Assembly: GCA_002424305.1 (NCBI GenBank)
Contig: DIQZ01000045.1
Span: forward strand, 391 to 63,635
From: Firmicutes bacterium UBA5449
Lineage (GTDB): Bacteria; Bacillota; SHA-98; UBA4971
Length of the DNA: 63,245 nucleotides
Direction: 5' to 3'
Positions 2,763 to 51,500 of the stretch are shown here, in pieces; position 1 is the stretch's first letter, and the number at the start of each line of letters is the position of its first letter. The notes beneath the pieces were generated by a model, which saw nothing but the letters and a program-made list of their open reading frames with translations, was not told where the DNA came from and ran no database searches. The position numbers and the translations under genes are program-made.

Positions 2763-3752
2763 GTGTCTTGTCAGATAAATTCTGTTAATACAAAGGATGC
2801 TGATGGTTTGATTCTGACAATCGGAGGCATTACAGCAGACATCATGGTTTTCCCGGAAACCAAGCCAAAGCCGGGGACTGATGTTCCGGCAACTATTCAA
2901 GTACACCCCGGCGGAGTGGCTTCCAACTTCGCGTTCTGGTGTTCACTCCTTGGTCAAGATGTCGGCCTTATTGGCGCAGTGGGTCAGGATGCTCTTGCGG
3001 ATATAGCACTTTCAGGGCTCAGTGAGGCAGGTGTTAATGTTTTCGTAAAATCCCACCGGAGCTTAAGGACTGCATGTGTTGTCAACCTTGTAGGTGCATC
3101 AGGTGAGAAGACCTTTATCACCCAGCGTGGAGCTGACGAGGCAATTCCTCACGAGATTATCACAGATGAACTGATTGCCAAGGCTAAATGGTTACACATA
3201 GGCGGTTATGTTCTCTACAGTGATGTTTCGCGTCCCGCAGCAGAGAAAGCCATGCGACTGGCACTTGCTAACGAAGTTCCGATGTCTATCGATCCGTGTT
3301 CTTGGTATCCTCTTCGTGAGTATGGCATATCACGTTTCTTGAGTACAGCCGCACACTCGACCCTTCTTATTCCCAACTATGATGAAGGGGTGACTCTTGT
3401 GGGAAAGAAGTCTCCTGAGAAGATGGCGTCTGAGCTTTTAAATTATGCTCCGTATGTTGTGGTGAAATTGGGGCGCGACGGTTGCGTTATTGCAGCGGAA
3501 GGCTGTGTCAAGGTTTGTTCCACCGAAGCTGTGGACGATCCGGTTGATACTACCGGTGCAGGCGACTCCTTTAACGCAGCGTTTGTCAGCGAGTTCTTAC
3601 GTTCAGGAGATATGTGGTCTGCAGCATGCTTCGCCAATTCCCTGGCCGGTAGGGTTGTGACTACGGTAGGAGCAAGGCCTGATGTCAGCACTGCTCGTGC
3701 TTGGATTGGATGTCTGGAACAAGAGAGAAGAAAGAGGGAATGTTCCACATGA
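2763..3752 (+). CDS. PfkB-family carbohydrate kinase, probable pseudouridine kinase
   Basis: PfkB signatures GGVASNFA, VGQDALAD, VVVKLGRDG, DTTGAGDSFNAAF; ATGA overlap with psuG. Substrate inferred from context only. Confidence 0.85.
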   Translation: MSCQINSVNTKDADGLILTIGGITADIMVFPETKPKPGTDVPATIQVHPGGVASNFAFWCSLLGQDVGLIGAVGQDALADIALSGLSEAGVNVFVKSHRSLRTACVVNLVGASGEKTFITQRGADEAIPHEIITDELIAKAKWLHIGGYVLYSDVSRPAAEKAMRLALANEVPMSIDPCSWYPLREYGISRFLSTAAHSTLLIPNYDEGVTLVGKKSPEKMASELLNYAPYVVVKLGRDGCVIAAEGCVKVCSTEAVDDPVDTTGAGDSFNAAFVSEFLRSGDMWSAACFANSLAGRVVTTVGARPDVSTARAWIGCLEQERRKRECST

Positions 3753-4669
3753 ACGAATACTTGATAGTCAATGACGAAGTAAGAGATGCTGTGAAAAGCG
3801 GGTTGCCTGTGGTTGCGTTTGAGACTTCTATTCTAACCCATGGCCTGCCTCAGCCTCATAATGTGAATTTGTCCAAAGAGGTCCGGGCAATTGCACGGTC
3901 AAAGGGCGTTGTGCCTGCGACTACTGCTGTCATTGACGGTAAGCTGAGGGTGGGATTAACTGAAGAAGAGATAGAGTTTCTCGGAACTGGTCCCGGTGTA
4001 GCCAAGGCAAGTTATCGGGATCTCGGTGTGCTCCTGGCCACCGGGGGTTCCGGAGGCACAACGGTAGCTTCAAGCATAGTTCTGGCGGAGATGGCGGGTA
4101 TCCGCATTTTCGTAACCGGAGGCATTGGAGGCGTGCATCGTGGGGCTGAAACTACCTTCGACATATCAGCTGATTTATTGATGATGTCAAAAGTAGATGT
4201 AGCTACGGTTTGTGCAGGTATGAAGTCTATCTTGGATATAGGATTAACATTGGAAGTCTTGGAGACTTTGGGTATTCCGGTTATCGGATACGATACTCAT
4301 ATTCTACCTGGATTTCATATAAGGCGGACTGCTCACAAGGTGTTATACACCGCTGAAGATCCTGAAGATGTTGTAAGATTCATGGTGTCAAAGTGGGATG
4401 CAGGCATAAAAGGCGGTTTTCTTCTTGCTGTACCTGTACCGGAAGAAGATGAGGTGGATTCCGGCCTGCTCCGGGATGCCATCAACCGGGCAGTTTGTGA
4501 AGCCGGGGAGAAGGGGATCAAGAGCAAAGATGTGACCCCTTATATCTTGTCTCGTCTTGGAGAGTTGACTCGCGGAGCGACGCTCAAGGCTAACCTGTCT
4601 CTTGTGCGGAATAACACTTGCGTAGGATGTGATATAGCAAAGTGCTATAGTCGTTTACGTAAAGAATGA
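3749..4669 (+). CDS. psuG: Pseudouridine-5'-phosphate glycosidase
   Basis: PVVAFETSILTHGLPQP, GGTTVAS, FVTGGIGGVHRGAETTFDISADL, VCAGMKSILD, GIKSKDVTPYIL. Start placed at ATG 3749 (overlapping the upstream TGA) instead of track start 3701. Confidence 0.93.
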   Translation: MNEYLIVNDEVRDAVKSGLPVVAFETSILTHGLPQPHNVNLSKEVRAIARSKGVVPATTAVIDGKLRVGLTEEEIEFLGTGPGVAKASYRDLGVLLATGGSGGTTVASSIVLAEMAGIRIFVTGGIGGVHRGAETTFDISADLLMMSKVDVATVCAGMKSILDIGLTLEVLETLGIPVIGYDTHILPGFHIRRTAHKVLYTAEDPEDVVRFMVSKWDAGIKGGFLLAVPVPEEDEVDSGLLRDAINRAVCEAGEKGIKSKDVTPYILSRLGELTRGATLKANLSLVRNNTCVGCDIAKCYSRLRKE

Positions 4670-4825: not shown

Positions 4826-7129
4826 TTGACCATAAGCGTTGTTACTACGATTAAGGGTAAGTGCAGGGAATGCTATGCATGTGTCCGGAATTGTCCTGTA
4901 AAGGCCATTAAAGTAGAAGACGGCCAGGCAACTGTAATCGAAGAACTGTGCATATCTTGTGGTTATTGCGTAAGGGTCTGCGCTCAACATGCAAAGCACA
5001 TCAGGGAAGATTTGGTTTCAGTTAAGAATGCGCTAAAAACAGGAAGAGCTTGCGCTTTGCTGGCTCCTGCTTTTGCAGTGGAATTTCACGGGGAATTGAA
5101 ACCGGGTCAGGTTGTGGCAGCGCTAAAAGAAATCGGATTTGCCGGCGTGTATGAGGTAGCGTGGGGAGCGGAACGTGTAACCCAGGAGTACATGAGGATT
5201 ATAGAAGGCGAGCACCCGCGCGGTATTATTTCTACGCCTTGTCCGGCCATAGTTAACCTAGTGGAAGTTAAGTATCCTCAACTCATTCCAAGACTTGTTC
5301 CGGTAGTCTCACCTATGGTAGCCGCAGGAAGAATGATAAAGAAGGAACACGTAGGGGCCTATACCGTATTTATCGGACCCTGTGTCGCCAAGAAGAGCGA
5401 GATGTTTGACTACTCAGTTGCTGACGCCATAGATGCGGTCCTTACATTTGTCGAATTGAGGACATTACTGGAGGATGCGCCTACCGGATGGGCAGATTTG
5501 CCTGACATGTCCTTCGACAGAGAAGAAGCATACCTAGGCCGGCTTTATCCGGTATCAGGCGGGCTACTTAGAAGCGCAGCGCTTTCTGCGGATATAGCTG
5601 ATAATGAAATCCTCGTTATGGAAGGTAAGGATAATTGCATCGATTTTCTTGAGGCGTTAAGTCTGGACGAAGACTGTCCGGAGTTTGTTGATATGCTGTT
5701 TTGTGAAGGATGCATAAATGGTCCCATGATGACGACAGAGCTTGACAGCTATGCGCGACGAGTAGTTGCTGTAAATTTTGCCAAGCAATCAGCACATGCC
5801 GGTTCAAGCATAACTCTAATGAAGCCGCAATTTCCTCAAATCGAGGGTACCCGTGGATTTTCACCTAGAAGTATAGACATGCCTGTTCCTGCAGAGGAGG
5901 ATATACAGCGCATACTCCTTGAGCTTAACAAGACCAAACGGGAAGATGAGTTAAACTGCGGTGCATGTGGATATAACACATGCCGAGAGAAAGCTACAGC
6001 AGTATTCCAGGGACTTGCTGAAAACAAAATGTGTCTACCATATTTAGTAATGCAGCTTGAGGTGCACAACATGGATCTGGCAGAGCTTAAAGCATATCAT
6101 GAAGACATAATTGACAGTATTATTGAAGGTATTGTAGTTGTGGACTGTAACATGACGATAACCAGTCTGAACAAATCAGCAGACCGATATTCCACCTCAC
6201 AATCCATTGGCAGAAACATGTTTCAAGCGTTCCCGGAACTGGATATTCCAAGGTGTAGGCATGGTCTTGAGAGAGCCATATCACTGGGTGAGTCAACAGA
6301 TTTAGGAGAGATGGTTTTTCAGCTTGGCGCAGACAAGATTACCTTACACCTTAAGATCAGCCCTCTTAAGAACTATGATGGAGAAGTATACGGAGCAGTC
6401 CTCCTAAGTCAAGATATCACTGAGAAGCGCAGGCTTGAAAACCAGCTCATCCAGTCTGACAGACTAGCTGCTCTAGGGCAACTGGCAGCAGGGGTTGCTC
6501 ATGAGATCAATACACCACTGACTCTCATTCTCGGATATACGGATATTCTCAAGAAGTCTGTGAGGTCGGACAACCTTGAGAGTTCATACCTTAAGACAAT
6601 AATTGAAGAATCAGAGAGGATTTCTGATATTGTCCGTAGCCTTCTGAATTTTGCAAGGCCGACTAACATGTCTGCAGGTAGATGTAAGGTGAATGAGGCC
6701 TGCAGAAGAACCCTTAGGATATTCGGAGGACAAATGAGTCGAAGGGGAATCAAGGTTACTTCGGATCTTGACGAGAGTCAGCCGGAGGCTGCCATTGATA
6801 TCGGAGAATTACAGCAAGTTATCCTTAACATGATCCTCAATGCTATGCAAGCTATGCCTGATGGGGGGCATCTGGGCATAAAGACAGGTACATCCGGTGA
6901 TGTGGTGAAGATTACCATAACAGACACAGGTACCGGAATCGCGCCGGAGAATATGAGAAAGATCTTCAATCCGTTTTTTACTACTAAGGATGTAGGCAAG
7001 GGAACAGGTCTTGGACTTTCAGTAAGTTTTGATATTATAGAAAAGCACGGTGGAACCGTCAAGGTCGAAAGCCAACTTGGCAAGGGTACAGCTTTCATGA
7101 TTATTCTTCCTAAGAATGGAGTGCGGTAG
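4826..7129 (+). CDS. Sensory-type (group C-like) [FeFe]-hydrogenase domain fused to FeS, PAS and histidine kinase domains
   Basis: 2x[4Fe-4S] (CRECYACVRNCP, CISCGYCVRVC); altered H-cluster motifs STPCPAI / IGPCVAKKSE / DMLFCEGCINGP; FeS motif CGACGYNTC...MC; PAS-like segment (EGIVVVDCNMTITSLNKSA); H-box HEINTPL; HATPase N, G1, F and G2 boxes (ILNAMQAM, DTGTGI, FFTTK, GTGLGL). Confidence 0.88.
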   Translation: MTISVVTTIKGKCRECYACVRNCPVKAIKVEDGQATVIEELCISCGYCVRVCAQHAKHIREDLVSVKNALKTGRACALLAPAFAVEFHGELKPGQVVAALKEIGFAGVYEVAWGAERVTQEYMRIIEGEHPRGIISTPCPAIVNLVEVKYPQLIPRLVPVVSPMVAAGRMIKKEHVGAYTVFIGPCVAKKSEMFDYSVADAIDAVLTFVELRTLLEDAPTGWADLPDMSFDREEAYLGRLYPVSGGLLRSAALSADIADNEILVMEGKDNCIDFLEALSLDEDCPEFVDMLFCEGCINGPMMTTELDSYARRVVAVNFAKQSAHAGSSITLMKPQFPQIEGTRGFSPRSIDMPVPAEEDIQRILLELNKTKREDELNCGACGYNTCREKATAVFQGLAENKMCLPYLVMQLEVHNMDLAELKAYHEDIIDSIIEGIVVVDCNMTITSLNKSADRYSTSQSIGRNMFQAFPELDIPRCRHGLERAISLGESTDLGEMVFQLGADKITLHLKISPLKNYDGEVYGAVLLSQDITEKRRLENQLIQSDRLAALGQLAAGVAHEINTPLTLILGYTDILKKSVRSDNLESSYLKTIIEESERISDIVRSLLNFARPTNMSAGRCKVNEACRRTLRIFGGQMSRRGIKVTSDLDESQPEAAIDIGELQQVILNMILNAMQAMPDGGHLGIKTGTSGDVVKITITDTGTGIAPENMRKIFNPFFTTKDVGKGTGLGLSVSFDIIEKHGGTVKVESQLGKGTAFMIILPKNGVR

Positions 7130-7130
7130 T

Positions 7131-8516
7131 ATGGGGGCAATCACCGGTAAGGTGCTTGTCATTGATGATGAAGAGAAAATGTGCGAATTTCTCTCTCTGG
7201 TGCTCTCTCAGGACGGACATAAAGTCTTTACTGCCACAAATGGGGAGCAAGCTTTGGATACTATGCGGTCCAAGGCAAACCTTGACGTTATTGTCACTGA
7301 CCTCATGATGCCTAAAATCAGTGGTATGGACGTTTTAGAAGAGGCAAAACGCTTGCTCCCGGATACCCCGGTGATCATGATTACCGGGTACTCTACAGTG
7401 GAAAGTGCTGTAGACGCCATGAAAGCAGGGGCGTTCGATTATTTACCAAAGCCATTCAAGGTCGATGAGGTGAAACTTGTAGTCAACAAGGCGCTGGACA
7501 GGCGAGCCATTACTCTGGAAAATAAAAGGCTTAGGCGAGAACTCCAGGCAATTCGTGAGCGGTCAGGTGAGATTATCGGCACATCCGAGAATATGCAAGA
7601 AGTTTTCCGGCTCGTTGAGAAAATCGCGAGGACTGATGCTACAACGCTGATTCGTGGAGAAAGCGGGACCGGCAAAGACCTAATCGCCCGCGAGATCCAC
7701 ATGCAGAGTCTGAGAGCCTCAAAGCCTTTCATAAGCATAAACTGTGCTGCACTACCTGAGACACTCCTCGAGAGTGAGCTTTTCGGTCATGCTCGTGGAG
7801 CTTTTACAGGTGCGGTTACGACTAAGCGGGGTCTATTTGAAGAAGCGGACGGAGGCACCATATTTCTGGATGAAATAGGAGACATCAGTCTTGCGCTTCA
7901 GGCCAAGCTCTTGAGGTTTCTCCAAAACAGAGAGTTTATTCGTGTTGGCGAGACTGTTGTGAGATGCGTGGATGTCCGGGTACTGGTTGCAACGAACAAA
8001 GATTTGGAGGCAGCCATCGAGAAGGGAGCTTTTCGTTCCGACCTTTATTATAGAATGAATGTGATAACTATCTACCTACCCACACTCAGGGAGCGTAAGA
8101 AGGATATACCCCTATTGTCTAGGCACTTTGCCCGAAAATTCGGAGCCAAATGTCTGAAAGGTACGATTGCTTTTTCCAAGGAAGCTATGGATGCTTTAGT
8201 TAATTATGCTTGGCCCGGTAATGTAAGAGAGCTTGAGAACGCAATTGAACGGGCTCTGATACTAATGGAAGGCAACGACCTTGAGCTGCATGATCTTCCG
8301 GATGAGGTAATTGAAGCGTACGAAGTACAGAAGTCCGGGAAATGCGACAATACAGACGGTGAATCATTTTATGAAGCTGTTGATGAGTACAAGCGCGAGC
8401 TGATTTCCAAGGCGCTTGAAAAATCTGAAGGCATCCAAGCCGGAGCTGCCCGGATTCTCGGTATTAAACGAACTACACTGAATGAAATGATGAAACGTTT
8501 AGGGATGCTGGGATAG
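7131..8516 (+). CDS. NtrC/AtoC-family sigma54-dependent response regulator (receiver-AAA+-Fis HTH)
   Basis: VLVIDDEE, phosphoacceptor VTDLMMP, YLPKPF, Walker A GESGTGKD, intact GAFTGA loop, FLDEIGD, WPGNVRELEN, C-terminal HTH AARILGIKRTTLNEMMKRL. Start ATG 7131, 1 nt after the kinase stop. Confidence 0.95.
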   Translation: MGAITGKVLVIDDEEKMCEFLSLVLSQDGHKVFTATNGEQALDTMRSKANLDVIVTDLMMPKISGMDVLEEAKRLLPDTPVIMITGYSTVESAVDAMKAGAFDYLPKPFKVDEVKLVVNKALDRRAITLENKRLRRELQAIRERSGEIIGTSENMQEVFRLVEKIARTDATTLIRGESGTGKDLIAREIHMQSLRASKPFISINCAALPETLLESELFGHARGAFTGAVTTKRGLFEEADGGTIFLDEIGDISLALQAKLLRFLQNREFIRVGETVVRCVDVRVLVATNKDLEAAIEKGAFRSDLYYRMNVITIYLPTLRERKKDIPLLSRHFARKFGAKCLKGTIAFSKEAMDALVNYAWPGNVRELENAIERALILMEGNDLELHDLPDEVIEAYEVQKSGKCDNTDGESFYEAVDEYKRELISKALEKSEGIQAGAARILGIKRTTLNEMMKRLGMLG

Positions 8517-8524
8517 GATCAAAA

Positions 8525-8561
8525 CGCCAATAAATTGGACGTAGTGTCCAACTTATTGGAT
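8525..8561 (+). promoter_or_regulatory. Tandem palindromic enhancer (UAS) sites, probably for the adjacent sigma54 activator
   Basis: CCAA-TAAA-TTGG (8527-8538) and CCAA-CTTA-TTGG (8548-8559), 21 bp apart, about 140-165 bp upstream of the predicted transcription start. Confidence 0.6.
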
Positions 8562-8668
8562 CCAATATCCGTCTTGTATTACCGGTGTGATGAGAGTAAA
8601 ATACATAAAAGACCTGCGTAAGGTATGGTTAAAGAGTTCTTCGGAACTCTTGTATTTTTGCTGGAAAC

Positions 8669-8685
8669 CTGGCACGGGACTTGCA
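8669..8685 (+). promoter_or_regulatory. Sigma54 (RpoN) -24/-12 promoter of the hydrogenase operon
   Basis: CTGGCACGGGACTTGCA matches TGGCAC-N5-TTGCA; GG (8671-8672) and GC (8683-8684) are separated by exactly 10 nt. Confidence 0.88.
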
Positions 8686-8787
8686 CCTAATAATGAGTGG
8701 AGCCGGTATTGGGCAGTTGCGAGCGTTAATGACTGTCCATTTCTAATGACCGGGATTGTGAAATTAGGCACAAAGGGGGGGAGTAAC

Positions 8788-8988
8788 GTGTCAGCGCTGC
8801 CGCTAAAAGAAAACAAAGTACAGCGTTGGATACCTCATGGAGTCGATGAGGATTTGGCAGAAGAGTATGTAGAGGCAATGCAGAAGTATGGCCCGGGATA
8901 CCCTGACAGTGGTTGGTTTAGACGAGCTGCGCAACTCGAGAGGCAAATGCATGACGTTCGCCTGGAGACAAAATTTGATGAGAACTAG
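8788..8988 (+). CDS. Small hypothetical protein (66 aa), first gene of the sigma54 hydrogenase operon
   Basis: GTG at 8788 preceded by a G-rich RBS (AAAGGGGGGGAG); downstream of the -24/-12 promoter; stop 29 nt before hydB. The track start (8587) lies upstream of the promoter and is unlikely. Confidence 0.55.
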   Translation: MSALPLKENKVQRWIPHGVDEDLAEEYVEAMQKYGPGYPDSGWFRRAAQLERQMHDVRLETKFDEN

Positions 8989-9017
8989 AGGTTGTAAGCG
9001 CAAGGGGTGATAGTAAG

Positions 9018-10865
9018 ATGAGTCCATTTATTCGTGCACATATACTGGTATGTTCCGGAGCAGGATGTGTATCTTCAGGATGTTATGAAGTATATGATTC
9101 ACTCATGCATGCACTTGAAGATCAGGGAGTCCTGAACGAAGTTAAGGTAATCAAGACAGGCTGCATAGGTTCGTGCGACTTAGGTCCGACTGTCTTGATC
9201 TATCCGAATGGAACCTTCTATCAGAAGGTTACGCCTGAAGATGCCAGAGAGATTGTTGAGGAGCATATAGTCAAAGGTAGGCCGGTTGAGAGGCTGTACC
9301 CTAAACGAGCTACCGGTGAAATGGTCAAAAACATCTCAAGTTTGGATTTCTTCAAGAAGCAGGTTAAGGTGGTTCTCAGGAACTGTGGAGTCATTGACCC
9401 TGAGAATATACATGAGTATGTTGCTCGTGACGGTTATGAAGCTTTAGCCGTAGCCCTTACTGATATGACGCCCAAAGATGTCATTGATACAATAAAACAG
9501 TCAGGTCTCAGGGGACGTGGCGGGGCCGGTTTTCCTACAGGCCTCAAATGGGAATTTGCGCAAAGAGTCAATGCCGAAGAGAAATACGTAGTATGTAACG
9601 CTGATGAGGGTGACCCAGGCGCTTTTATGGATAGGAGTGTTCTGGAAGGTGATCCCCATAGTATTATCGAGGCAATGACTATAGCAGGATATGCAATCGG
9701 GGCGAGCCAGGGATATGTCTACGCTCGTGCCGAGTATCCACTGGCAGTAAGTAGGTTGACCCATGCCATAAAGGAAGCTCACGAATTTGGAGTATTAGGT
9801 GAGAACCTCTTTGGCTCCGGATTTTCGTTTGACTTGGATATTCGAGTTGGTGCAGGTGCTTTCGTCTGTGGCGAAGAGACTGCTTTGCTGGCATCCATGG
9901 AAGGCAAGCGGGGTATGCCAAGGCCCAGGCCTCCGTTCCCGGCAAATGAAGGACTCTTCAAGAAGCCGACTCTTATCAATAACGTAGAGACGTACGCGAA
10001 TATTGCGCCGATAATTCTTAAGGGACCGGATTGGTTCAGAAGCATAGGGACGGAGAAAAGCCCGGGCACAAAGGTCTTTGCTCTTGCCGGGAAAATAAAC
10101 AATACAGGTCTTGTGGAAGTTCCGATGGGGACAACTCTCAGAGAGATCGTGTATGAAATCGGCGGAGGGATTCCTGACGGTAAGGCGTTTAAGGCAGCGC
10201 AGACCGGCGGTCCTTCAGGTGGTTGTATTCCTGAGTCGCTCTTGGATATCAGCATGGAGTATGACACTCTGACTAAAGCCGGCGCTATGATGGGGTCCGG
10301 CGGACTAATCTGCATGGATGAAGACACTTGCATGGTGGATATAGCCAAATTCTTCTTGCAGTTTACTCAAGACGAATCTTGCGGCAAGTGTGTCCCCTGC
10401 AGAGAGGGCACCAAGGTGATGCTTGACATCTTGACGCGTATTACTGAGGGGAAGGGTCAGCCCGGGGATATAGAGACTCTCGAATCCCTTGCGAAGACGA
10501 TTAAGAATACAGCCCTTTGTGGACTGGGACAGACTGCACCAAATCCTGTCCTCAGCTCCATAAGGTACTTTAGAGATGAATATGAAGCTCATATTGACGA
10601 GAAACGATGTCCCGGAGGAGTTTGCAAAGATCTGATCCGGTATGAGATAGATTCAACCAAGTGTAGGGGCTGCAGTCTTTGCGCAAAAGCCTGTCCTGTG
10701 CAGGCTATTCATCCGGTTGCCAGCGAGGCTGAAGTGGCCAAAGCTGCCGGAGGCGAAAGCGGTCAGAAGCCCAAACGCAAAACGTACGAAATCGATAACA
10801 GCGAATGTCAAAAATGCGGCGAGTGCATGAGTGTTTGCCGCTTTGACGCCGTGTCCAGGAGGTGA
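9018..10865 (+). CDS. hydB: NADH/FMN-binding subunit of electron-bifurcating-type [FeFe]-hydrogenase (NuoF/HydB/HndC family)
   Basis: N-terminal thioredoxin-like [2Fe-2S] domain (CSGAGC...GCIGSC); GLRGRGGAGFPTGLKW, CNADEGDPGAFMDR, GAGAFVCGEETAL, ESCGKCVPCREG; C-terminal 2x[4Fe-4S]. Confidence 0.92.
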   Translation: MSPFIRAHILVCSGAGCVSSGCYEVYDSLMHALEDQGVLNEVKVIKTGCIGSCDLGPTVLIYPNGTFYQKVTPEDAREIVEEHIVKGRPVERLYPKRATGEMVKNISSLDFFKKQVKVVLRNCGVIDPENIHEYVARDGYEALAVALTDMTPKDVIDTIKQSGLRGRGGAGFPTGLKWEFAQRVNAEEKYVVCNADEGDPGAFMDRSVLEGDPHSIIEAMTIAGYAIGASQGYVYARAEYPLAVSRLTHAIKEAHEFGVLGENLFGSGFSFDLDIRVGAGAFVCGEETALLASMEGKRGMPRPRPPFPANEGLFKKPTLINNVETYANIAPIILKGPDWFRSIGTEKSPGTKVFALAGKINNTGLVEVPMGTTLREIVYEIGGGIPDGKAFKAAQTGGPSGGCIPESLLDISMEYDTLTKAGAMMGSGGLICMDEDTCMVDIAKFFLQFTQDESCGKCVPCREGTKVMLDILTRITEGKGQPGDIETLESLAKTIKNTALCGLGQTAPNPVLSSIRYFRDEYEAHIDEKRCPGGVCKDLIRYEIDSTKCRGCSLCAKACPVQAIHPVASEAEVAKAAGGESGQKPKRKTYEIDNSECQKCGECMSVCRFDAVSRR

Positions 10866-10867
10866 GT

Positions 10868-12634
10868 ATGATGGGAAATGAAAAAAAGAAGATTAATTTA
10901 ACAATTGACGGAATCCAGGTTGAAGCACATGAAGGAGAAATGGTGCTCGAGGCGGCGCGGCGTGCAGGGATCGATATTCCTACTCTTTGCTACCATCCGG
11001 CTGTAGGCCCGATAGGCTCTTGTAGGGTGTGTGTAGTGGAAATCGAGAATGGTAGAGGCCTCCCTGCTTCATGCGTGACCCCTGTTCGGGAAGGCATGGT
11101 TGTGCGTACTAATACTGAGGCGGTGCGTGAGGCCCGTCGTACTGTGGTTGAGCTTATATTAGCTTCTCATCCCCAGGATTGTCTCCAGTGTGAAAGAAAC
11201 GGCAAGTGTGAACTCCAGGAACTTGCCATGCGTCTTGGGATTCGGGAGAGTAGATTTCATAGAGAGAAAGAGCATAGAGAGTCTGATACGTCCAGCGTTG
11301 CACTGGTGCGTGATCCGGAGAAGTGTATACTGTGCGGCCGCTGCGTGAAAATGTGCAGTGAGACGCAGACTGTAGGTGCTCTGGGTTTTGCATATCGTGG
11401 CACTGATGCTCTTGTAACACCCATGTTTGAGCGGGGACTGGCTGAGTCAAAATGCGTATCATGCGGACAATGCGCGAAAATCTGTCCTGTTGGAGCTATT
11501 CATGAGAAAGAAGAGTGGCAGAAAGTCGCGGACATGATAAGCGATCCTGATCTACATGTGGTGGTGCAGGTAGCACCGGCAGTTCGAGCTGCTATAGGTG
11601 AGGAATTCGGAATCCCGGCAGGCACGCCTGTAACAGGTAAGCTTGCAACGGCTCTAAAGAGACTCGGGTTTGATGCTGTATTTGATACGCAATTCACTGC
11701 TGACCTTACGATAATGGAAGAAGGAACTGAGCTTCTTGAAAGGATGAAGACAAAAGGGCCGTTGCCTCTAGTAACATCGTGTAGCCCTGGATGGATAAGG
11801 TATGCAGAAACCTTCCACCCGGAGTTTATTCCCAACATATCGTCGTGTAAATCGCCTCAGCAGATGATGGGCGCGGTTATAAAGACGTATTACGCTGACA
11901 AGGCAGGCATTGACCCTGACAAGATCGCATCTATTTCGGTGATGCCGTGCACTGCTAAGAAGTTCGAATGTGCCAGACCTGAAATGAACGGATCCGGACG
12001 AAGGGATGTAGATGTCGTCCTAACCACGAGGGAACTGGCGCGTATGATTAGACAGGCAGGTATCAGGTTCGAGGAGCTCCCTGACGGTGAGTTTGATGCG
12101 CCACTTGGAATATCAACAGGAGCGGCGACGATATTCGGTGTTACAGGCGGTGTCATGGAAGCTGCTCTTCGTACCGTATACGAGATTGTCATGAAGAAGC
12201 CACTTGGCAAGGTTGAGTTCTTACAAGTCAGGGGTATGGATGGTATAAAGGAAGCTACCATTGACTTAGGTGGAACGAAGGTTCGAGTGGCTGTAGCTCA
12301 TGGCTTGAGTAATGCAAGCAAGCTCCTGAAACACATTAAGGAGACCGGAGAAACCTATCACTTCATAGAAGTAATGGCATGTCCCGGTGGCTGCATAATG
12401 GGTGGAGGCCAGCCAAGATCCGTTGATTCCGATATTGCTGTTAAGAGGGCTGCTGCACTCTACACAGAGGATAGGAGCATGGAGATGCGCAAGTCCCATG
12501 AGAATCCTGCGGTCGCGCGTCTTTATGAGGAATTCCTGCAGAAGCCGGGTAGTGACATAGCCCATAAATTGCTGCACACTACGTACGAGAGTGTGGATGA
12601 AGCTGCTGCGGCTAGTAGGAAGGAGGCTATGTAA
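10868..12634 (+). CDS. hydA: Catalytic subunit of group A3 [FeFe]-hydrogenase (HydA/HndD)
   Basis: [2Fe-2S] (IPTLC...CRVC...C), His-ligated cluster HPQDCLQC, 2x[4Fe-4S], canonical H-cluster motifs TSCSPGW, MPCTAKKFE, EVMACPGGCIMGGGQP. Start ATG 10868 (or 10871) after AGGAGG. Confidence 0.95.
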   Translation: MMGNEKKKINLTIDGIQVEAHEGEMVLEAARRAGIDIPTLCYHPAVGPIGSCRVCVVEIENGRGLPASCVTPVREGMVVRTNTEAVREARRTVVELILASHPQDCLQCERNGKCELQELAMRLGIRESRFHREKEHRESDTSSVALVRDPEKCILCGRCVKMCSETQTVGALGFAYRGTDALVTPMFERGLAESKCVSCGQCAKICPVGAIHEKEEWQKVADMISDPDLHVVVQVAPAVRAAIGEEFGIPAGTPVTGKLATALKRLGFDAVFDTQFTADLTIMEEGTELLERMKTKGPLPLVTSCSPGWIRYAETFHPEFIPNISSCKSPQQMMGAVIKTYYADKAGIDPDKIASISVMPCTAKKFECARPEMNGSGRRDVDVVLTTRELARMIRQAGIRFEELPDGEFDAPLGISTGAATIFGVTGGVMEAALRTVYEIVMKKPLGKVEFLQVRGMDGIKEATIDLGGTKVRVAVAHGLSNASKLLKHIKETGETYHFIEVMACPGGCIMGGGQPRSVDSDIAVKRAAALYTEDRSMEMRKSHENPAVARLYEEFLQKPGSDIAHKLLHTTYESVDEAAAASRKEAM

Positions 12635-13198
12635 ATGGCGTCAAGTGTTGAAGCAAAACGTAGTAAGCTTGAATCTAAAGGCGGAGAGTGTAAGTGTCAT
12701 GGGAAGCTCCCTGACGATAGGTTTGCCAAGCTCCATGACATAATTGAAGAGCATAAAGATGAACGGGGCTCTCTTATCCCTGTCCTCCATGAAGCCCAGC
12801 AGTTGTTCGGATGCCTTCCTGAAGACGTTCAAAAGCAGGTAGCAAAGGGTCTGGATGTGCCTGAGAGTGAGGTTTACGGAGTAGCTACATTCTACTCGCT
12901 GTTTTCTCTCAAGCCAAAGGGCAGGTGGATAGTGAACGTCTGCCTTGGCACAGCCTGTTATGTGAAGGGGGCAGCCGATTGTCTCGAGGCATTGAAAAAA
13001 GAACTCGGTGTCGACCTCGGTGGGACAAGCAAAGATGGGCTATTTACTTTACAGGGAGTGCGCTGTGTAGGAGCGTGCGCCCTTGCTCCTGTGGTAGTAA
13101 TCGATGATACTGTCTACGCTAAAGTCAAGCCTGAGGATATTAAGAGAATCCTCGCTGAACATGTAGAAGCGAACGCTAAGGAAGCCCATGCTTCGTAG
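12635..13198 (+). CDS. hydC: [2Fe-2S] thioredoxin-like subunit (NuoE/HydC/HndA family)
   Basis: LIPVLHEAQ..FGCLP, VYGVATFYS, VCLGTACYVKG, RCVGACALAPV; starts immediately after the hydA stop. Confidence 0.93.
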   Translation: MASSVEAKRSKLESKGGECKCHGKLPDDRFAKLHDIIEEHKDERGSLIPVLHEAQQLFGCLPEDVQKQVAKGLDVPESEVYGVATFYSLFSLKPKGRWIVNVCLGTACYVKGAADCLEALKKELGVDLGGTSKDGLFTLQGVRCVGACALAPVVVIDDTVYAKVKPEDIKRILAEHVEANAKEAHAS

Positions 13199-13270
13199 CT
13201 TATTGTAGATTCACTCAAGCGACACAATAATCTCCAATTCCACAACTTAGCAAATCCCATATCCAAAGGA

Positions 13271-13303
13271 AAGAGCTCCGGCTGTATGGCCGGGGCTCTT
13301 TCT
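13271..13303 (+). terminator. Intrinsic terminator closing the hydrogenase operon
   Basis: AAGAGCTCCGGC-TGTATG-GCCGGGGCTCTT followed by TCT; A-run on the 5' side. Confidence 0.75.
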
Positions 13304-45481: not shown

Positions 45482-45538
45482 TCTATAGAGGAATGAAATA
45501 GTCTTTGTCGAACTATGTTTAAGCTGGGAGGGGAGATT

Positions 45539-48500
45539 ATGGCGTCTATGCCCAAAAAGACAAAAGCTCTGGGTGCAGTAATAATCATTGTCATGTCTGT
45601 AGCAATTCTTTGTGTCTACAATAATCTCCTAAAAATCCAAAACGCAATCCTCCTGGCGGCACGAGATCCGATAATTGCAGGGCTTGAAGATGCGCTGGGC
45701 ACTAAGGTGGAAATTGAGTCTATCGCCGGCAAAACCCTCAGCGAAGTGGTGATATCCGGACTATCGGTTGCCGGGTTCGATACAGATGTTCCTGTTCTTT
45801 CTGCAAGGCATGTGGAAGTCAGTTATTCATTATTCGATATTATCACTAAACGTAAGGACATAGCTCATGCCATCACAGGCCTGGTTTTCATTGAACCGGA
45901 GCTTTGCACAGAGCTTCCTTCCGGAACGGGACTTCCGTCAGGGGCGGAAGGTGTTGATTTAGGGCAGGCAGTCGGTGCGTTGGACGGGTTTACAGGCTTC
46001 GTCTCTGTCAGAGACGGGACGCTGAAGGTTTACGGAATTCCCGGACTTGACAGGCCTTTTGCAGCCTGTGGTATCAACGGGGGTGTTTCGCTTAGCCAGC
46101 CGGGCATAGCAGGTCATATTAAGCTGTTCGCAGGGGATGAAAGAAAGATCGGCATTGCGGTGACAGGTGGATATGATCGGCAGACAAAAGCCATAACTTG
46201 CGATACGACTCTATCCGGAGTGATGCCTCAGGCGTGGTTAGGGGAGCTGCGTAGTATCGTAGATTCAGTAACCGTGCCACTACCCGGGGTCACAGAGGAG
46301 TCTATTGCAGGTATAAGGCAGATCCTAAACAGTGTTGACACAGTGGATCTGGCAGGTGGAAAAGTTAACGTAGAGGCTCACGTGAGGCCAAATGCGAAAA
46401 AAGGGCTGATAATTAGGGGAAAGGCCGGCATAGCTGAAGCGGATCTTAATGCGGCTCATATCACACTACCCGATTTCTCCGCTGATGTCGGGCAATTCCA
46501 AGATCTTGACAGTAGCTTGAATCTGGCTTTCGACTTTCAGTTGGATGAGGCAGGCCTGGCCTGCCAAGGCAAGGGTACAGTGTCTGTTGAGCATGTGCAA
46601 TGGATTGACAGTCAATTTGGGTTCTCTGAGGTTGATGCAAAAGGTAGGGTGATAGTCGAATTCTGGAAAGAAGCTGAAGATAAGTTGCTGTCTTTTGAGG
46701 GCAGTTCAACCTTGGATATTCCTTACCTGTCTGCCGGTGAAGCGCTGAAGAATGTTGCAGGGCTTGCAGCCGGCACCTTACAGGTGGAAGGCCCTGTTCG
46801 TGCAAACCTCAGTTTTGCCGGTAAGTCATTAGACAGCATAGAGGCGCAAGGCAGTCTGAAAATGGATAAAGGCAAGGTAGTCGCAGAACATGTCGTATCA
46901 GGGGTCTCCGAAATATCAGGGGATATCGGTGCATTTTTCACGTTTGAGGGAAGAGGAGGAGCTCTTGCCGATTATCAAGGACAGGTAAGACTGATTTCGG
47001 GATCTGTTGATATTGCCTACCCCGGTCAAGGTATTGAGTCTATCCGAGGATGTCTCACCGGCACTGTGAATGTTTCCGGTGGAAAAGATGTGCCTGTTAA
47101 GTATAAGGGAGTCGCCAATCTCAAAGAGGCCGACATAGCCTTAGACCGTATGCAACAGCTAAATCAGTCTTCCCGAGAAGGAGAGTCCTTTGCCGCAATT
47201 CGGGTGTCCAAAGGCACGGCAGACTGTGCAGTCGAGTTTGAGGGTGAGGCTCCCGGGACGGTTAGATATAATGGCATAGTCAACGTGATAGACAGTGCGA
47301 TAGAAGTATTAGGCGCAACGGAGGGCATAAAATCTTCGGTCGGAGAAGGAGAAGCCGGTGGAAACATCTCATTTGGCGGGGAGTATCCGGGTGATGTGGA
47401 ATACGGTGGCAAAATCAGTCTTCTCAGGGGGGAAGCGCGAATCGAAGACGGGCCTCCCTGGCTGAGACGAGCTTTAGGAGAAGTATCCGGTAATTTGGAG
47501 ATTTCCGGGAACTCCGGGGGCGAATTTAGATACAGTGGGGACTTGAGTGTAGCTAATATCGAGATAGACGTGTCTGATGCTCCCGGGGGAATAAAACAGT
47601 TTTCCGGTGAAGGGTCTGCATTTGTCAGTTTTCTCGGCGGAGGAGATAGCGTCCTACAGTATGAAGGCAGTGGTCAAGCAACTCGGGGGAACCTCCTCGC
47701 TACAGAGATTGAAGGGGGTATCCGTCGACTGGAAGGTCCGGTTACGGGCAATGTGGCCTTCAAAGGCGAATACCGGGAGAAGCCGGCTATCAATGGGATT
47801 ATGTCTATTGCCAAATGTGCTCTTGAGGTAGGCGAAATCGAAGGTCTTGTTAAATCCATTAGCGGTGAGGCCGACGGGGAGATTCATTTTTCCGGCTGCG
47901 GGCCGGAGCTTACCGGCTACTCCGGGAGAGGTAAGATAAATAGGGCTGTTTTTGTCTCAGACCAGGTCTATCCGGGCCTTATAGAGGCCGAAGGCTTGGC
48001 TGTTATTGACCTGAGATTCTCTTCGTCAGGTGACGATGACCTAACGTATGATGGAAAAGCTAAGATACAGTCAGCGACGATTCTTACGGAGCGAATTTAC
48101 CCCGGTCTTGAAAGTCTGGAAGGTAACGTAGCGTCTGAGCTTTCTTTTAGCAGCAGTGATGAAGGGGCTAAGTATGAGGGGGTTGCCAAGCTCTCATCAG
48201 GCAAGGTTTTGCTTAAAGACGGGATTCCAGGCCTTGATTCTATGGATGGTGATATATCTGCAAATTTGAAATTCCAAGGTGCGGGAGGCGCTGTGAGTTC
48301 TTTCCAAGGGGATGCAGTAATCTCCGGGGGAACACTGAAAGCAGGGCAAATATTAGGAGGAGTCGAGTCTATTGAAGGGCCTGCTCGCTTAGAAGCAGCG
48401 TTCTCCGGAGGCTTTGACACAGCTCCGACTTATAGTGGAAAACTTGCAATAAATGATGCTTCGTTTAGCGCATCGGACATTCTAGAGGGTGTCAAGAGTG

Positions 48501-51500
48501 TGGTAGGCAATGCCTGTAGTACGATTCAGTTCAAGAGTAATCCTAACGGTCCCATTCTATTTGACGGCACAGCTGTCATGTCAAATGTGTCTTTCGCCGC
48601 AGGCAGGGTTTATCCGGGAATTAAGGAGCTTGGTGGGAACGGTAGCATTAGGCTGTCATTCCAAAGAACTGCAGGCGACGATGTGTCTTACAGCGGGAAA
48701 GTCATGATAGACAAAGGAATTTTGAATCTTGACTCCATCGGTGCCAGGCTTGATAATCTTGCCGCTGAAGTGAATTTTGATATGGAGTCCCTGAATATTG
48801 AGGGAGCGACAGGAAATTTCGGAGCGTCAAAGTTCGAAGCTTCAGGGCTCGTACATTTTGGGAAAAATCCGGAAATAGACATTACGCTGAAGAGTAAAAA
48901 CCTGACCATGGAAGACCTAGGGGAGATTGCTGTAGCAGGTGATGCCTTCACTATTTCAGGTGCTGCTGCAGTGGATATCGGGGTCAGGGGGTTTTATCCG
49001 GATCTTGAATTGAGCGGAGAAGTATTATTATCTAAGGTTCGGGTAGAGCATGCCTCCCTGAAATCACCTGCAGAAAATATTGAAGGCAGAGTCAAACTGC
49101 TCGGGAATAGCGTAAGCTCAGAGGGCTTAACCATGGTTTTTATGGACTCATTTGCTGTGGTTAACGGCTCAGTAAATGATCTGTCTGAGCCTCATTTTGA
49201 TATGACAGTGTCCCTCGCTGATATTGAATTGAGTCGTGCCATGGAAGTGTTTGCTCCGAACATCGCAGGGGGTATGAAAGGGCACGGCGAAGTGACTCTG
49301 AACCTCAACGGGTCTCTTGAGGAACTGTGGGTAGACGGGGATTTTGCATTATCTGAAGTCTCCGCGATAGCTTCGGGGAAATCATTTAGAGCGCCTGAAG
49401 TCAAAGGAAAATTCCGTTACGGGAACAACGCAATAACCCTTAATGACACTGTTATTGCCACAATGGGCGGAGAGATTGATGTCAGCGGTGTTGTGCTGCT
49501 TAAGAAAACGCAAGATGAGTCCGGTGTAAGCTTGTGGACAAGGCTTTCTCTTGACGTCAAAGGAGTCTCTGTGAAAGAAGCAGCTTCATACGTCATATCC
49601 GAAGATATTACTACCTCCGGGGTGTTAGATGCCAAGGCTATGCTTGAGGTTGAGGAGGGTTCTTACAAGGTTGCGGGTTCATGTGCAATAACATCAGGCA
49701 GTATCCGGGATTATTCATTTGATAACCTAAGCGCAGAGTTTAGGGCAGAGGACGGCAGAATAACAATTGACGAGCTTACTTCAGAAGGTCCTGACGGCGA
49801 TCTAGCCGCAAGAGGGGTAATTTTCGATAACGCTGATTTCGAAATGCAGGTGGTTGCAGAGGCTGTTGACCTCAGGAAAGCGGCCAAGTCATTTGGCTAT
49901 GAGGACGTAGAAGGCAGCGCAAGTTTCGTGGGGACCATCTCCGGTAAAGACAAGAACATATCCCTGGATGGGCTTACCGAAATTGTGAGACCTAAAGCCT
50001 TTGGGATTCAGTTGGACTCTGCTGTAGGTCGTATCAAGCTTGATGGCAACACAATCCATCTTTCCAATGCTTCGATTCGCCTGGGGGATGCTGCATGTCT
50101 GGTTGCAGGTATAATAGAACTGGGCAGGGAAGACCCTGGGTTTGACTTGTTAGCAAATATTAACGGGATGCCTGTGGGTGAATTGGCGTCCATAGCAAAA
50201 ATCGGAGAAATTCCTCTAAAAGGGCAGATTTCCGGAAAGGTAGCCATTAGAGGAACTGTACGGAATCCGGAGGCAGAAGGAGACGTTAGGCTTTCGTCAG
50301 GGGAGATATCCGGTATAAAACTGGACGATGTCACCACAGGTTTTACATATGCTGCAGACACGGCTAACATAGAGAACCTAAGCATTGGCATAGGTTCTAT
50401 CAGGGTTAGTGCGTCAGGCAACGTGACGCGTGAAGGTAAACTTGACCTTTCTGTGAACATACAAGATTTCGATTTATCAAAGCTTCCGATGGATATCCCA
50501 AGTAACCCTGTAAGGGGGGGAATAGCCGGTTTTGAGGGTAAGATAACAGGGGAACTTGCCAAGCCTCAAGTGGAAGGGCACGTTGTGGCAAGGAATGTAT
50601 CTGTCATGGATGTACTTCTGCCTGATGTAACTTGTGACCTGAAATGGAGTCAGGGGGAGGTATATGTGAGGCGTGCAGTAATCCATGACGGAACCGGCAC
50701 CGCCGTAGCTGAAGGAAGCATAGGAGTTAATAACGGAAACTCTTTGAATCTTGCAATTACCGCTAGGGAGCTGGACGTAAAAACTGCCCTCGCTATTGTG
50801 CGCCCTGGAAAGAATGACCCTGTGGAGGGTAGAATCAGCGGTAAGGTGGATGTCCGGGGGGATCTGTCCCAACCCGCCATAGAGCTTAAGCTTGATACCA
50901 ATCGTCTGGTTGTAGGAGGAATTTCCCTTGAAAGCGCGTCATTGAATGCCGAAATCGTAGGAGATCATGTTAACTTGAAGCTCTTACGGTTATTCCAGGC
51001 AGGCGACGGCTACTTCGAAGCCACCGGCAGCCTGGGGCCGGGTGCCCCAATTTCTCTTACTGCTTCAGCCAGGCATTTCGATGTCAGTGCCGTATCCGCT
51101 GTGTTGGGATGGAAATATTCATTCAAAGGTACTATGGATCTTGCTATTAAAGCCGAAGGGGAATCAATGGATCCCTCTGTGGCTTTATCGTTTAGGGTTA
51201 CTGACGGCAGCGTGGAAAGGCTCGGTTTTGACTTGCTGGCTGCAAGAATGACATTTCGCGATGGCGTAGTCACCATTGAAGACGGTGAGATTGTTCAGGG
51301 GCGCCACAAAGAGGCTGTTCATGGCAAAGTTCCCATTTCCAAAAAGAGGCTTGAGACGATAGGAATCACGACCTTTGCCCCCGGCGAAGAATTAGATGTC
51401 AGCTTGCAAATGATCAACGGAAAGCTGGAGTTCATTTCCATGTTCTATGATGGAATTGAATGGGCAGAGGGCAACATTGATATAGACCTCCATGTTGCCG

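Follow-up and report, generated by a model that had tools for sequence, protein, structure and literature searches.

Sensory [FeFe] hydrogenases have been studied spectroscopically since 2018, and reviews still attach the word 'putative' to them; the group C enzymes were still termed putative sensors in 2024 (PMC11216029). The question raised by a locus of the Firmicutes bacterium UBA5449 is whether the route from such a protein to its target genes can be followed in the DNA. The locus lies in contig DIQZ01000045.1, within a window of 63,245 nt (the whole stretch analysed here), and occupies positions 4826-13303, or 8.5 kb, with every element on the + strand. A sequence-only reading had described it as a complete H2-sensing circuit, running from a hydrogenase-kinase fusion through a sigma-54 activator, an enhancer and a -24/-12 promoter to a bifurcating hydrogenase. 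Pfam domains, translations, and motif and terminator scans place all of the listed parts where that reading had put them, co-oriented on the + strand. The wiring from kinase to NtrC-type activator, enhancer, promoter and hydBAC (parts, order, candidate sites, promoter, insulation and target genes) can be read directly from this anatomy and from ten related loci. With a probability of about 0.6, the locus would be the two-component version of a regulatory module conserved in anaerobic Firmicutes, in which a kinase that reads H2 acts through an activator and a sigma-54 promoter on a small protein together with HydBAC.

The sensor is a protein of 767 aa in which Pfam recognizes two Fer4 domains, Fe_hyd_lg_C (PF02906, E 2e-46), FeS (PF04060), PAS, HisKA and HATPase_c. 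Two ferredoxin-type [4Fe-4S] motifs (C13-C23 and C42-C52) form its N-terminus, a Cx2Cx4Cx16C cluster (C378-C403) lies C-terminal to the hydrogenase domain (H-domain), with PAS following at residues 430-536. The kinase part has the HisKA H-box and the N and G boxes of the HATPase. Its candidate phosphoacceptor, H559, stands in a HEINTP motif, presumably a mark of a bifunctional kinase/phosphatase. The Cx2Cx4Cx16C motif is identical to that placed between H-domain and PAS in sensory enzymes (PMC8163306).

Residues of the H-domain were assigned by aligning the sensor to the HydA encoded farther along the locus, whose offset from CpI is constant (8) at all three H-cluster motifs. Twelve sequences were aligned in all, namely this HydA, the sensor and ten family members. 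The candidate H-cluster ligands of the sensor (C139, C186, C293 and C296), its K189 (the equivalent of the CN-binding K358 of CpI) and its APA/S-motif Pro (P231 equivalent) are conserved throughout the twelve. Three substitutions are of the sensory type: P138 at the position of the proton-relay residue C299 of CpI, G184 at M353 and L291 at M497. Among sensory enzymes, Pro occupies position 299 in ~10% and Gly position 353 in ~51% (PMC10055695), and TamHydS carries Leu at position 497 with the cofactor still bound (PMC8163306). Judged by the four Cys and the Lys, by residues 299, 353 and 497, and by an M2f architecture (two [4Fe-4S] motifs, C-terminal cluster and PAS), the sensor is a group-C-like [FeFe] domain linked to a kinase by direct fusion. 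HydDB lists a class C1 described as 'histidine kinase-linked (putative)' (PMC5037454), and kinase domains occur on both C1 and C3 entries of group C in a study of Hydrogenedentota (PMC11406978).

The activator gene begins 1 nt past the sensor gene and encodes an intact GAFTGA loop, as the sequence-only reading held. ATG 7131, with a GGAG 8 nt upstream, is the most plausible start judged by this ribosome-binding site (RBS). Pfam assigns REC, Sigma54_activat (E 3e-71), AAA_lid and a Fis-type HTH_8 domain to the product, which has the AAA+ Walker A and B motifs and the REC Asp (D62 when numbered from the alternative ATG at 7116). Its nearest relatives in the PDB are NtrC1, ZraR and NtrC. The AAA+ and helix-turn-helix (HTH) part is 63% identical to that of a one-component fusion protein from Moorella, with a nearly identical recognition helix.

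Downstream of the activator gene, two 14-bp palindromes, GCCAATAAATTGGA (8526-8539) and TCCAACTTATTGGA (8547-8560), start 21 bp apart and have the forms gCCAA-N4-TTGGa and TCCAA-N4-TTGGA. They are centred at ~-164 and ~-143 relative to the predicted +1, and the 63-kb window holds no third match to the pattern at up to one mismatch. The promoter, TGGCACGGGACTTGCA, has its GG at 8671-8672 and its GC at 8683-8684, which puts the predicted +1 at ~8696, and it is the sole match to the -24/-12 pattern in the window with one mismatch allowed. Taken singly, these motif counts are within chance for 63 kb, where 2.4 and 2.8 matches are expected at up to one mismatch. What exceeds chance is their clustering in one 270-bp intergenic region and their retention at the same offsets in relatives. 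A terminator-like hairpin with a T-run sits 10 nt upstream of the -24 element; transcription of the sensor and activator genes probably stops there, which would keep the sigma-54 promoter insulated. Between enhancer and hairpin lies a sigma-70-like TTGTAT-17-TAAAAT (8573-8601), whose TTGTAT hexamer is invariant and whose TAAAAT persists in five of the six close relatives. Were this promoter active, its transcript would be only ~50 nt long and end at the hairpin; alternatively, the stretch may be an AT-rich bending region.

The sigma-54 transcription unit is headed by a small open reading frame (ORF) of 66 aa with a GTG start at 8788 and a strong RBS. Substitutions between it and its relatives favour the third codon position (14/6/28 by position in one comparison), and this bias makes it a real coding gene. 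Homologues stand at the same position in eleven related loci (L001, L002, L004, L005, L080, L082, L085, L086, L088, L090 and L093). The invariant positions of the family are Y34, W43 and the C-terminal N66; Y27 and F44 come close to it. The family comprises 28 proteins in 9 clusters at 50% identity, annotated only as 'hypothetical', and two intermediate sequences (P0131 and P0132) link the subtype of the window to that of the Moorella-type fusion loci. No Pfam or NCBIfam family, Fe_hyd_SSU included, matched the small ORF. An AlphaFold2 model of modest confidence (pLDDT 68) predicts a two-helix hairpin, for which Foldseek returned no structural match.

The gap between the small ORF and hydB is 29 nt and contains no terminator. 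HydB is a NuoF-like FMN/NADH subunit that begins with a thioredoxin-like [2Fe-2S] domain and carries two [4Fe-4S] motifs toward its C-terminus, and HydC is a NuoE-like [2Fe-2S] subunit. HydA matches NCBIfam NF040763, 'NADH-dependent [FeFe] hydrogenase, group A6', at 899 bits against a cut-off of 765, and its best PDB matches are the bifurcating HydA1 structures 8a6t (E 1e-196) and 7q4v (E 1e-194). With a HydA bearing the H-cluster motifs, a NuoF-like HydB and a NuoE-like HydC in one operon, HydBAC is, by composition, an NADH-linked hydrogenase of the electron-bifurcating type. The L1 motif of HydA (residues 305-309) reads TSCSPGW rather than TSCCP, with Ser at the position of CpI C300 by straight alignment; the same variant occurs in the HydA of L001, L002, L005, L082, L084, L085 and L086. 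Inactivity of HydA on account of this motif was considered and rejected, as the solved HydA1 of A. woodii (7q4v) carries it too.

How far this arrangement extends was followed at two distances. In a first scan, whose matches were mostly unrelated kinases, the sole full-length close relatives were five digester-type loci from metagenome-assembled genomes (L001-L005), with sensors 82-84% identical to that of the window; more distant relatives (50-70% identity) were fetched individually. Gene order is the same as in the window in those of L001-L005 that reach far enough. The -24/-12 element is present in all five, invariant save for its spacer in the aligned intergenic regions. The palindromes keep their half-sites, vary in their spacers and, in each of the six sequences, lie equally far from the -24 element. 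The hairpin of L002 has changed in a compensatory way, from GTTC/GAAC to GTCC/GGAC. Farther out, the -24/-12 promoter recurs in L080, L082, L083, L085, L086, L088, L089, L090 and L093, palindromes of similar type in L080, L083, L085, L088 and L089, and the hairpin-then-promoter arrangement in L082, L085, L086, L088 and L093. A synteny search had been proposed as a check, and its outcome is uniform: in 10/10 loci that reach far enough (L001, L002, L004, L005, L080, L082, L083, L088, L089 and L090), the activator gene follows the PAS-kinase sensor gene and the -24/-12 promoter comes next.

A search with the first 420 residues of the sensor returned more than 7,800 proteins. The best 120 of these fall into three architectures: PAS-kinases, kinases only, and sensors joined directly to a sigma-54 AAA+/HTH module. 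Fusions of this last type are found in Moorella humiferrea, in another Moorella/Neomoorella genome and in Thermanaeromonas toyohensis, where they are positioned just after a hyd cluster. On the 3' side of each fusion gene come a similar palindrome (TTCAA-N4-TTGAA in L085), a hairpin terminator, a -24/-12 promoter and an ORF of 52-61 aa with a further terminator behind it. Because the Moorella-type fusions share sensor, palindrome, promoter and small ORF with the window, the conserved unit is the sensor, the sigma-54 promoter and the small protein. The two-component and one-component forms, compared in this way, are variants of one module. In Zhaonella formicivorans (L080), as in Moorella and Thermanaeromonas, the sigma-54 promoter drives the small ORF alone, with a terminator behind it, while in L082, L088 and L090 the small ORF is followed by hydBAC. 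Among the loci compared, only this lineage has hydBAC attached behind the small ORF. The earlier proposal that the hydrogenase is the target of the circuit thus stands for this lineage and gives way, across the family, to the small ORF as the conserved target.

The circuit favoured here would work as follows. Its input would be a cytoplasmic kinase whose group-C-like [FeFe] domain is flanked by the two N-terminal [4Fe-4S] motifs and the C-terminal Cx2Cx4Cx16C cluster. H2 at the H-cluster may set the redox state of this domain, and that state would be relayed through an Fe-S/coiled-coil linker and the PAS domain to H559, where it would set how far kinase or phosphatase activity toward D62 of the activator prevails. 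The phosphorylated activator would then bind the two palindromes and remodel sigma-54 RNA polymerase at the -24/-12 element, with the upstream terminator predicted to shield the promoter from read-through. The transcript would encode the 66-aa protein, the module's invariant target, together with HydBAC in this lineage. No rpoN is found among the genes of the 63-kb window, and we infer that the host has RpoN. As for the sign of control, analogy with the Geobacter system described below points to induction by H2; an enzyme that confurcates and produces H2 could just as sensibly be repressed by it. The relevance to interspecies H2 transfer that the sequence-only reading proposed is likewise putative.

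Several observations weigh against this circuit or against H2 as its input. The L3 motif of the sensor is FCEGC, with Cx2C spacing instead of the canonical Cx3C; the shorter spacing is common to 10/10 aligned relatives linked to a kinase or an enhancer-binding protein (EBP), while a classical PAS-type HydS-like protein in the hyd cluster of L089, 30% identical to the sensor, keeps Cx3C. Given this spacing, binding of an H-cluster ([2Fe]) in the sensor clade is putative. In the Hydrogenedentota study, motifs P1-P3 were hardly found in C1 enzymes (PMC11406978). The PAS-less kinases of L084 and L091 have as their output a single-domain receiver and a REC-HisKA hybrid kinase, with no EBP; these PAS-less loci adjoin hydE, hydG and hydF, and L091 also has a [NiFe] HoxH-like enzyme. 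In L082, the palindrome is not recognizable in the intergenic region. Metatranscriptome contigs of run X5 cover the locus at a depth of 2 and break at single-nucleotide polymorphisms at 8348, 8700 and 9314. In run X2, one contig spans the promoter, from a library that may contain DNA. The X5 break at 8700/8701, 4-5 nt from the predicted +1, was considered as a transcript start and rejected as an assembly artefact at a polymorphic position.

The peculiarities of the H-domain bear most on a reading in which the circuit is real and the domain senses cellular redox (reduced ferredoxin, O2, CO or NO) through its [4Fe-4S] clusters, Nar1-like and without [2Fe], rather than H2. The Cx2C of L3, the Pro at the proton-relay position and the Leu at M497 fit such a protein, as do the Hydrogenedentota C1 enzymes reportedly lacking recognizable motifs and the report that the M497L variant of CpI has no properly integrated [2Fe] cluster (PMC10055695); the three accessory [4Fe-4S] sites could exchange electrons with ferredoxin. 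However, the four Cys and the CN-binding Lys are kept in the twelve aligned sequences, drawn from all three architectures, a pattern that a plain [4Fe-4S] site does not readily account for, and TamHydS binds its cofactor despite its own Leu. The module also repeatedly adjoins hydrogenase genes, and the hgtR gene of Geobacter, described below, responds to H2 (PMC2817479). Redox sensing without H2 is a rather unlikely account of the locus, though one to be taken seriously. A different reading leaves the sensor in place and makes the small protein the output that matters, with hydBAC merely downstream and mainly under another signal such as Rex or a sigma-A promoter. It draws on the loci in which the small ORF is the sole gene behind the sigma-54 promoter, on L083 and L089, where a terminator follows the small ORF and the hyd cluster lies beyond, and on a Rex-like operator in the leader. 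Yet the gap between small ORF and hydB is short and shows no terminator in the window, L001, L002, L004, L005 and L082, and the terminator upstream of the -24/-12 site would block read-through, leaving hydBAC with no other evident promoter. We regard this separation of hydBAC from the circuit as improbable. That the locus has decayed or fallen silent, with no functional sigma-54 or with an inactive sensor, is hardly credible: every ORF is intact and retains its catalytic motifs, and the promoter, the upstream activating sequence (UAS) and the small ORF are under purifying selection across the close relatives.

The closest precedent for an H2-reading module of this kind is the hgtR gene of Geobacter sulfurreducens (Ueki and Lovley 2010), which encodes a 62-aa repressor, is transcribed from a mapped RpoN-type start and has a terminator behind it (PMC2817479). 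Its expression is higher with H2, and the adjacent gene encodes a hydrogenase-like EBP suggested by the authors as a hydrogen sensor (PMC2817479). Both systems tie an [FeFe]-like sensor to a sigma-54 activator with a -24/-12 promoter and the gene of a ~60-aa protein downstream, and hgtR ends in a terminator, as do the small ORFs of the Moorella and Zhaonella relatives. The Geobacter system, however, is one-component, with the sensor fused to AAA+; here, the sensor is on a PAS-kinase and the AAA+ protein has a receiver. HgtR is a ribbon-helix-helix protein, non-homologous to the small protein here, and the window, unlike Geobacter, has a hydrogenase operon within the same transcription unit. 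Homology between the small ORF and HgtR was tried and rejected (hhalign probability 0.1 against the small-ORF family), the HgtR sequence having come from a metagenome contig (L087) located via the published primer. As there is no detectable sequence similarity, the likeness is one of design (position and size) and not of descent.

The Clostridiales and Moorella one-component EBPs resemble the proteins of the window in sequence (sensor domain 54% identical, AAA+/HTH 63%) and have the palindrome, the insulated promoter and the small-ORF family in common with the window; they differ in working without a phosphorelay and in having no hydBAC behind the promoter. Fer4, Fe_hyd_lg_C and FeS were listed among the sensor domains of Clostridiales EBPs by Nie et al. 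2019 (PMC6615313). The group C proteins TmHydS and TamHydS (PMC10055695, PMC8163306) resemble the sensor in the M2-type N-terminus, the four-Cys H-domain, residues 299, 353 and 497 and the Cx2Cx4Cx16C cluster followed by PAS, and group C HydS genes likewise adjoin a group A bifurcating hydrogenase. Unlike them, the sensor of the window has its kinase in the same polypeptide and a Cx2C in L3. Its output pathway is readable from the DNA, whereas none has been described for TmHydS or TamHydS.

The [NiFe] systems HoxBC-HoxJ-HoxA of Cupriavidus necator and HupUV-HupT-HupR of Rhodobacter capsulatus follow the same logic, from sensor to PAS-kinase to NtrC-family regulator to hydrogenase genes. They differ in an unrelated metal site and in a non-homologous sensor that is a separate heterodimer, unfused to the kinase. 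HoxA is active when unphosphorylated, and HupR works with sigma-70; neither the sign of control nor the sigma factor can therefore be transferred from them to the present locus.

The sequence-only reading knew of no case in which the whole chain from sensor to target promoter had been demonstrated. This holds in that our literature search found no paper on the kinase-activator-promoter-hydABC wiring or on the small protein, and none defining the output pathway of sensory [FeFe] hydrogenases. It falls short in leaving uncited the HydDB class C1, the Clostridiales EBPs and Geobacter hgtR. The circuit type is already proposed and is not a new idea; the complete wiring and the small protein are new to the literature found. 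The locus and its relatives supply a full set of clonable parts (sensor, receiver-activator, two 14-bp sites, promoter and first target). Since the output module occurs in cultured Moorella/Neomoorella, Thermanaeromonas toyohensis and Zhaonella formicivorans, the question of H2 sensing by group C enzymes is directly testable. In digesters and fermentation pits, the unannotated small protein may connect H2 partial pressure with the redox metabolism of fermenters, acetogens and syntrophs.

A broader and more doubtful proposal, which we put forward tentatively, is that the 52-93-aa family (Y-x6-Y-x8-W-F ... D/E-Q/E-N-COOH) would be the universal H2-response effector of Firmicutes [FeFe]-sensor/sigma-54 modules, with an HgtR-like role in an unrelated fold, and that the one- and two-component forms would be fused and split versions of one ancestral H2 switch. 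If so, the small protein might bind HydABC, Rex or RNA polymerase and re-route reducing equivalents as H2 accumulates.

Table. Features of the H2-sensor locus, in coordinates of the window, with the evidence for each
Feature	Position	Strand	Basis
Sensor histidine kinase	4826-7129	+	Pfam, translation, alignment
NtrC-type activator (sigma-54 EBP)	7131-8516 (alternative ATG 7116)	+	Pfam, RBS
Candidate enhancer (UAS), two palindromes	8526-8560	.	Pattern scan, conservation
Terminator-like hairpin and T-run	8632-8660	+	Terminator scan
Sigma-54 -24/-12 promoter	8670-8685	+	Pattern scan, conservation
Rex-operator-like inverted repeat, tentative	8756-8773	.	Best consensus match in window
Small ORF, 66 aa	8788-8988	+	RBS, codon-position bias, homologues
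hydB	9018-10865	+	Pfam, NCBIfam
hydA	10862-12634	+	NCBIfam, PDB matches
hydC	12635-13198	+	Pfam, NCBIfam
Intrinsic terminator ending the operon, 16-bp stem	13268-13303	+	Terminator scan

Two further elements lie in the leader between the promoter and the small ORF. The Rex-like inverted repeat, TTGTGAAATTAGGCACAA, lies upstream of the RBS G-run (8776-8782), separated from it by 2 nt, and is the best match of the window to TTGTGAA-N4-TTCACAA, with 2 mismatches; the Rex operator consensus is TTGTGAA-W4-TTCACAA (PMC2883068). It is conserved in L001-L005 and L082, and it hints, tentatively, at a second, NADH-dependent input. A hairpin at 8710-8739 (GGGCAGT...ACTGTCC), followed by an invariant ATTTCTA, is conserved in L001, L002, L004 and L005. 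The leader has no Rfam match, and the hairpin shows no covariation among the compared sequences, which are too similar to one another.

A second, unrelated small-ORF family of 65-67 aa, beginning MNKDLVRLEKRRSMLLDRWL, stands behind the sigma-54 promoter in L083 (12550-12753) and L089 (11991-12188). In both loci, a terminator follows this ORF, and a large hyd cluster (DRTGG, HATPase, HydS-like, PHP, HydC and a HydB-GltD fusion) lies farther downstream.

Directly upstream of the sensor gene, positions 2763-4669 encode a PfkB-family kinase and an indigoidine synthase A-like (PsuG-type) protein, a pair that probably serves pseudouridine catabolism. At the far end of the window (38254-63097), sporulation genes (SpoIID and a SpoIVB-like peptidase) stand beside genes of outer-membrane biogenesis (BamA/Omp85 and LptF/G), a combination that suggests a diderm, spore-forming Firmicute as the host. 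The same region contains an ORF of 2368 aa at 45515-52621.

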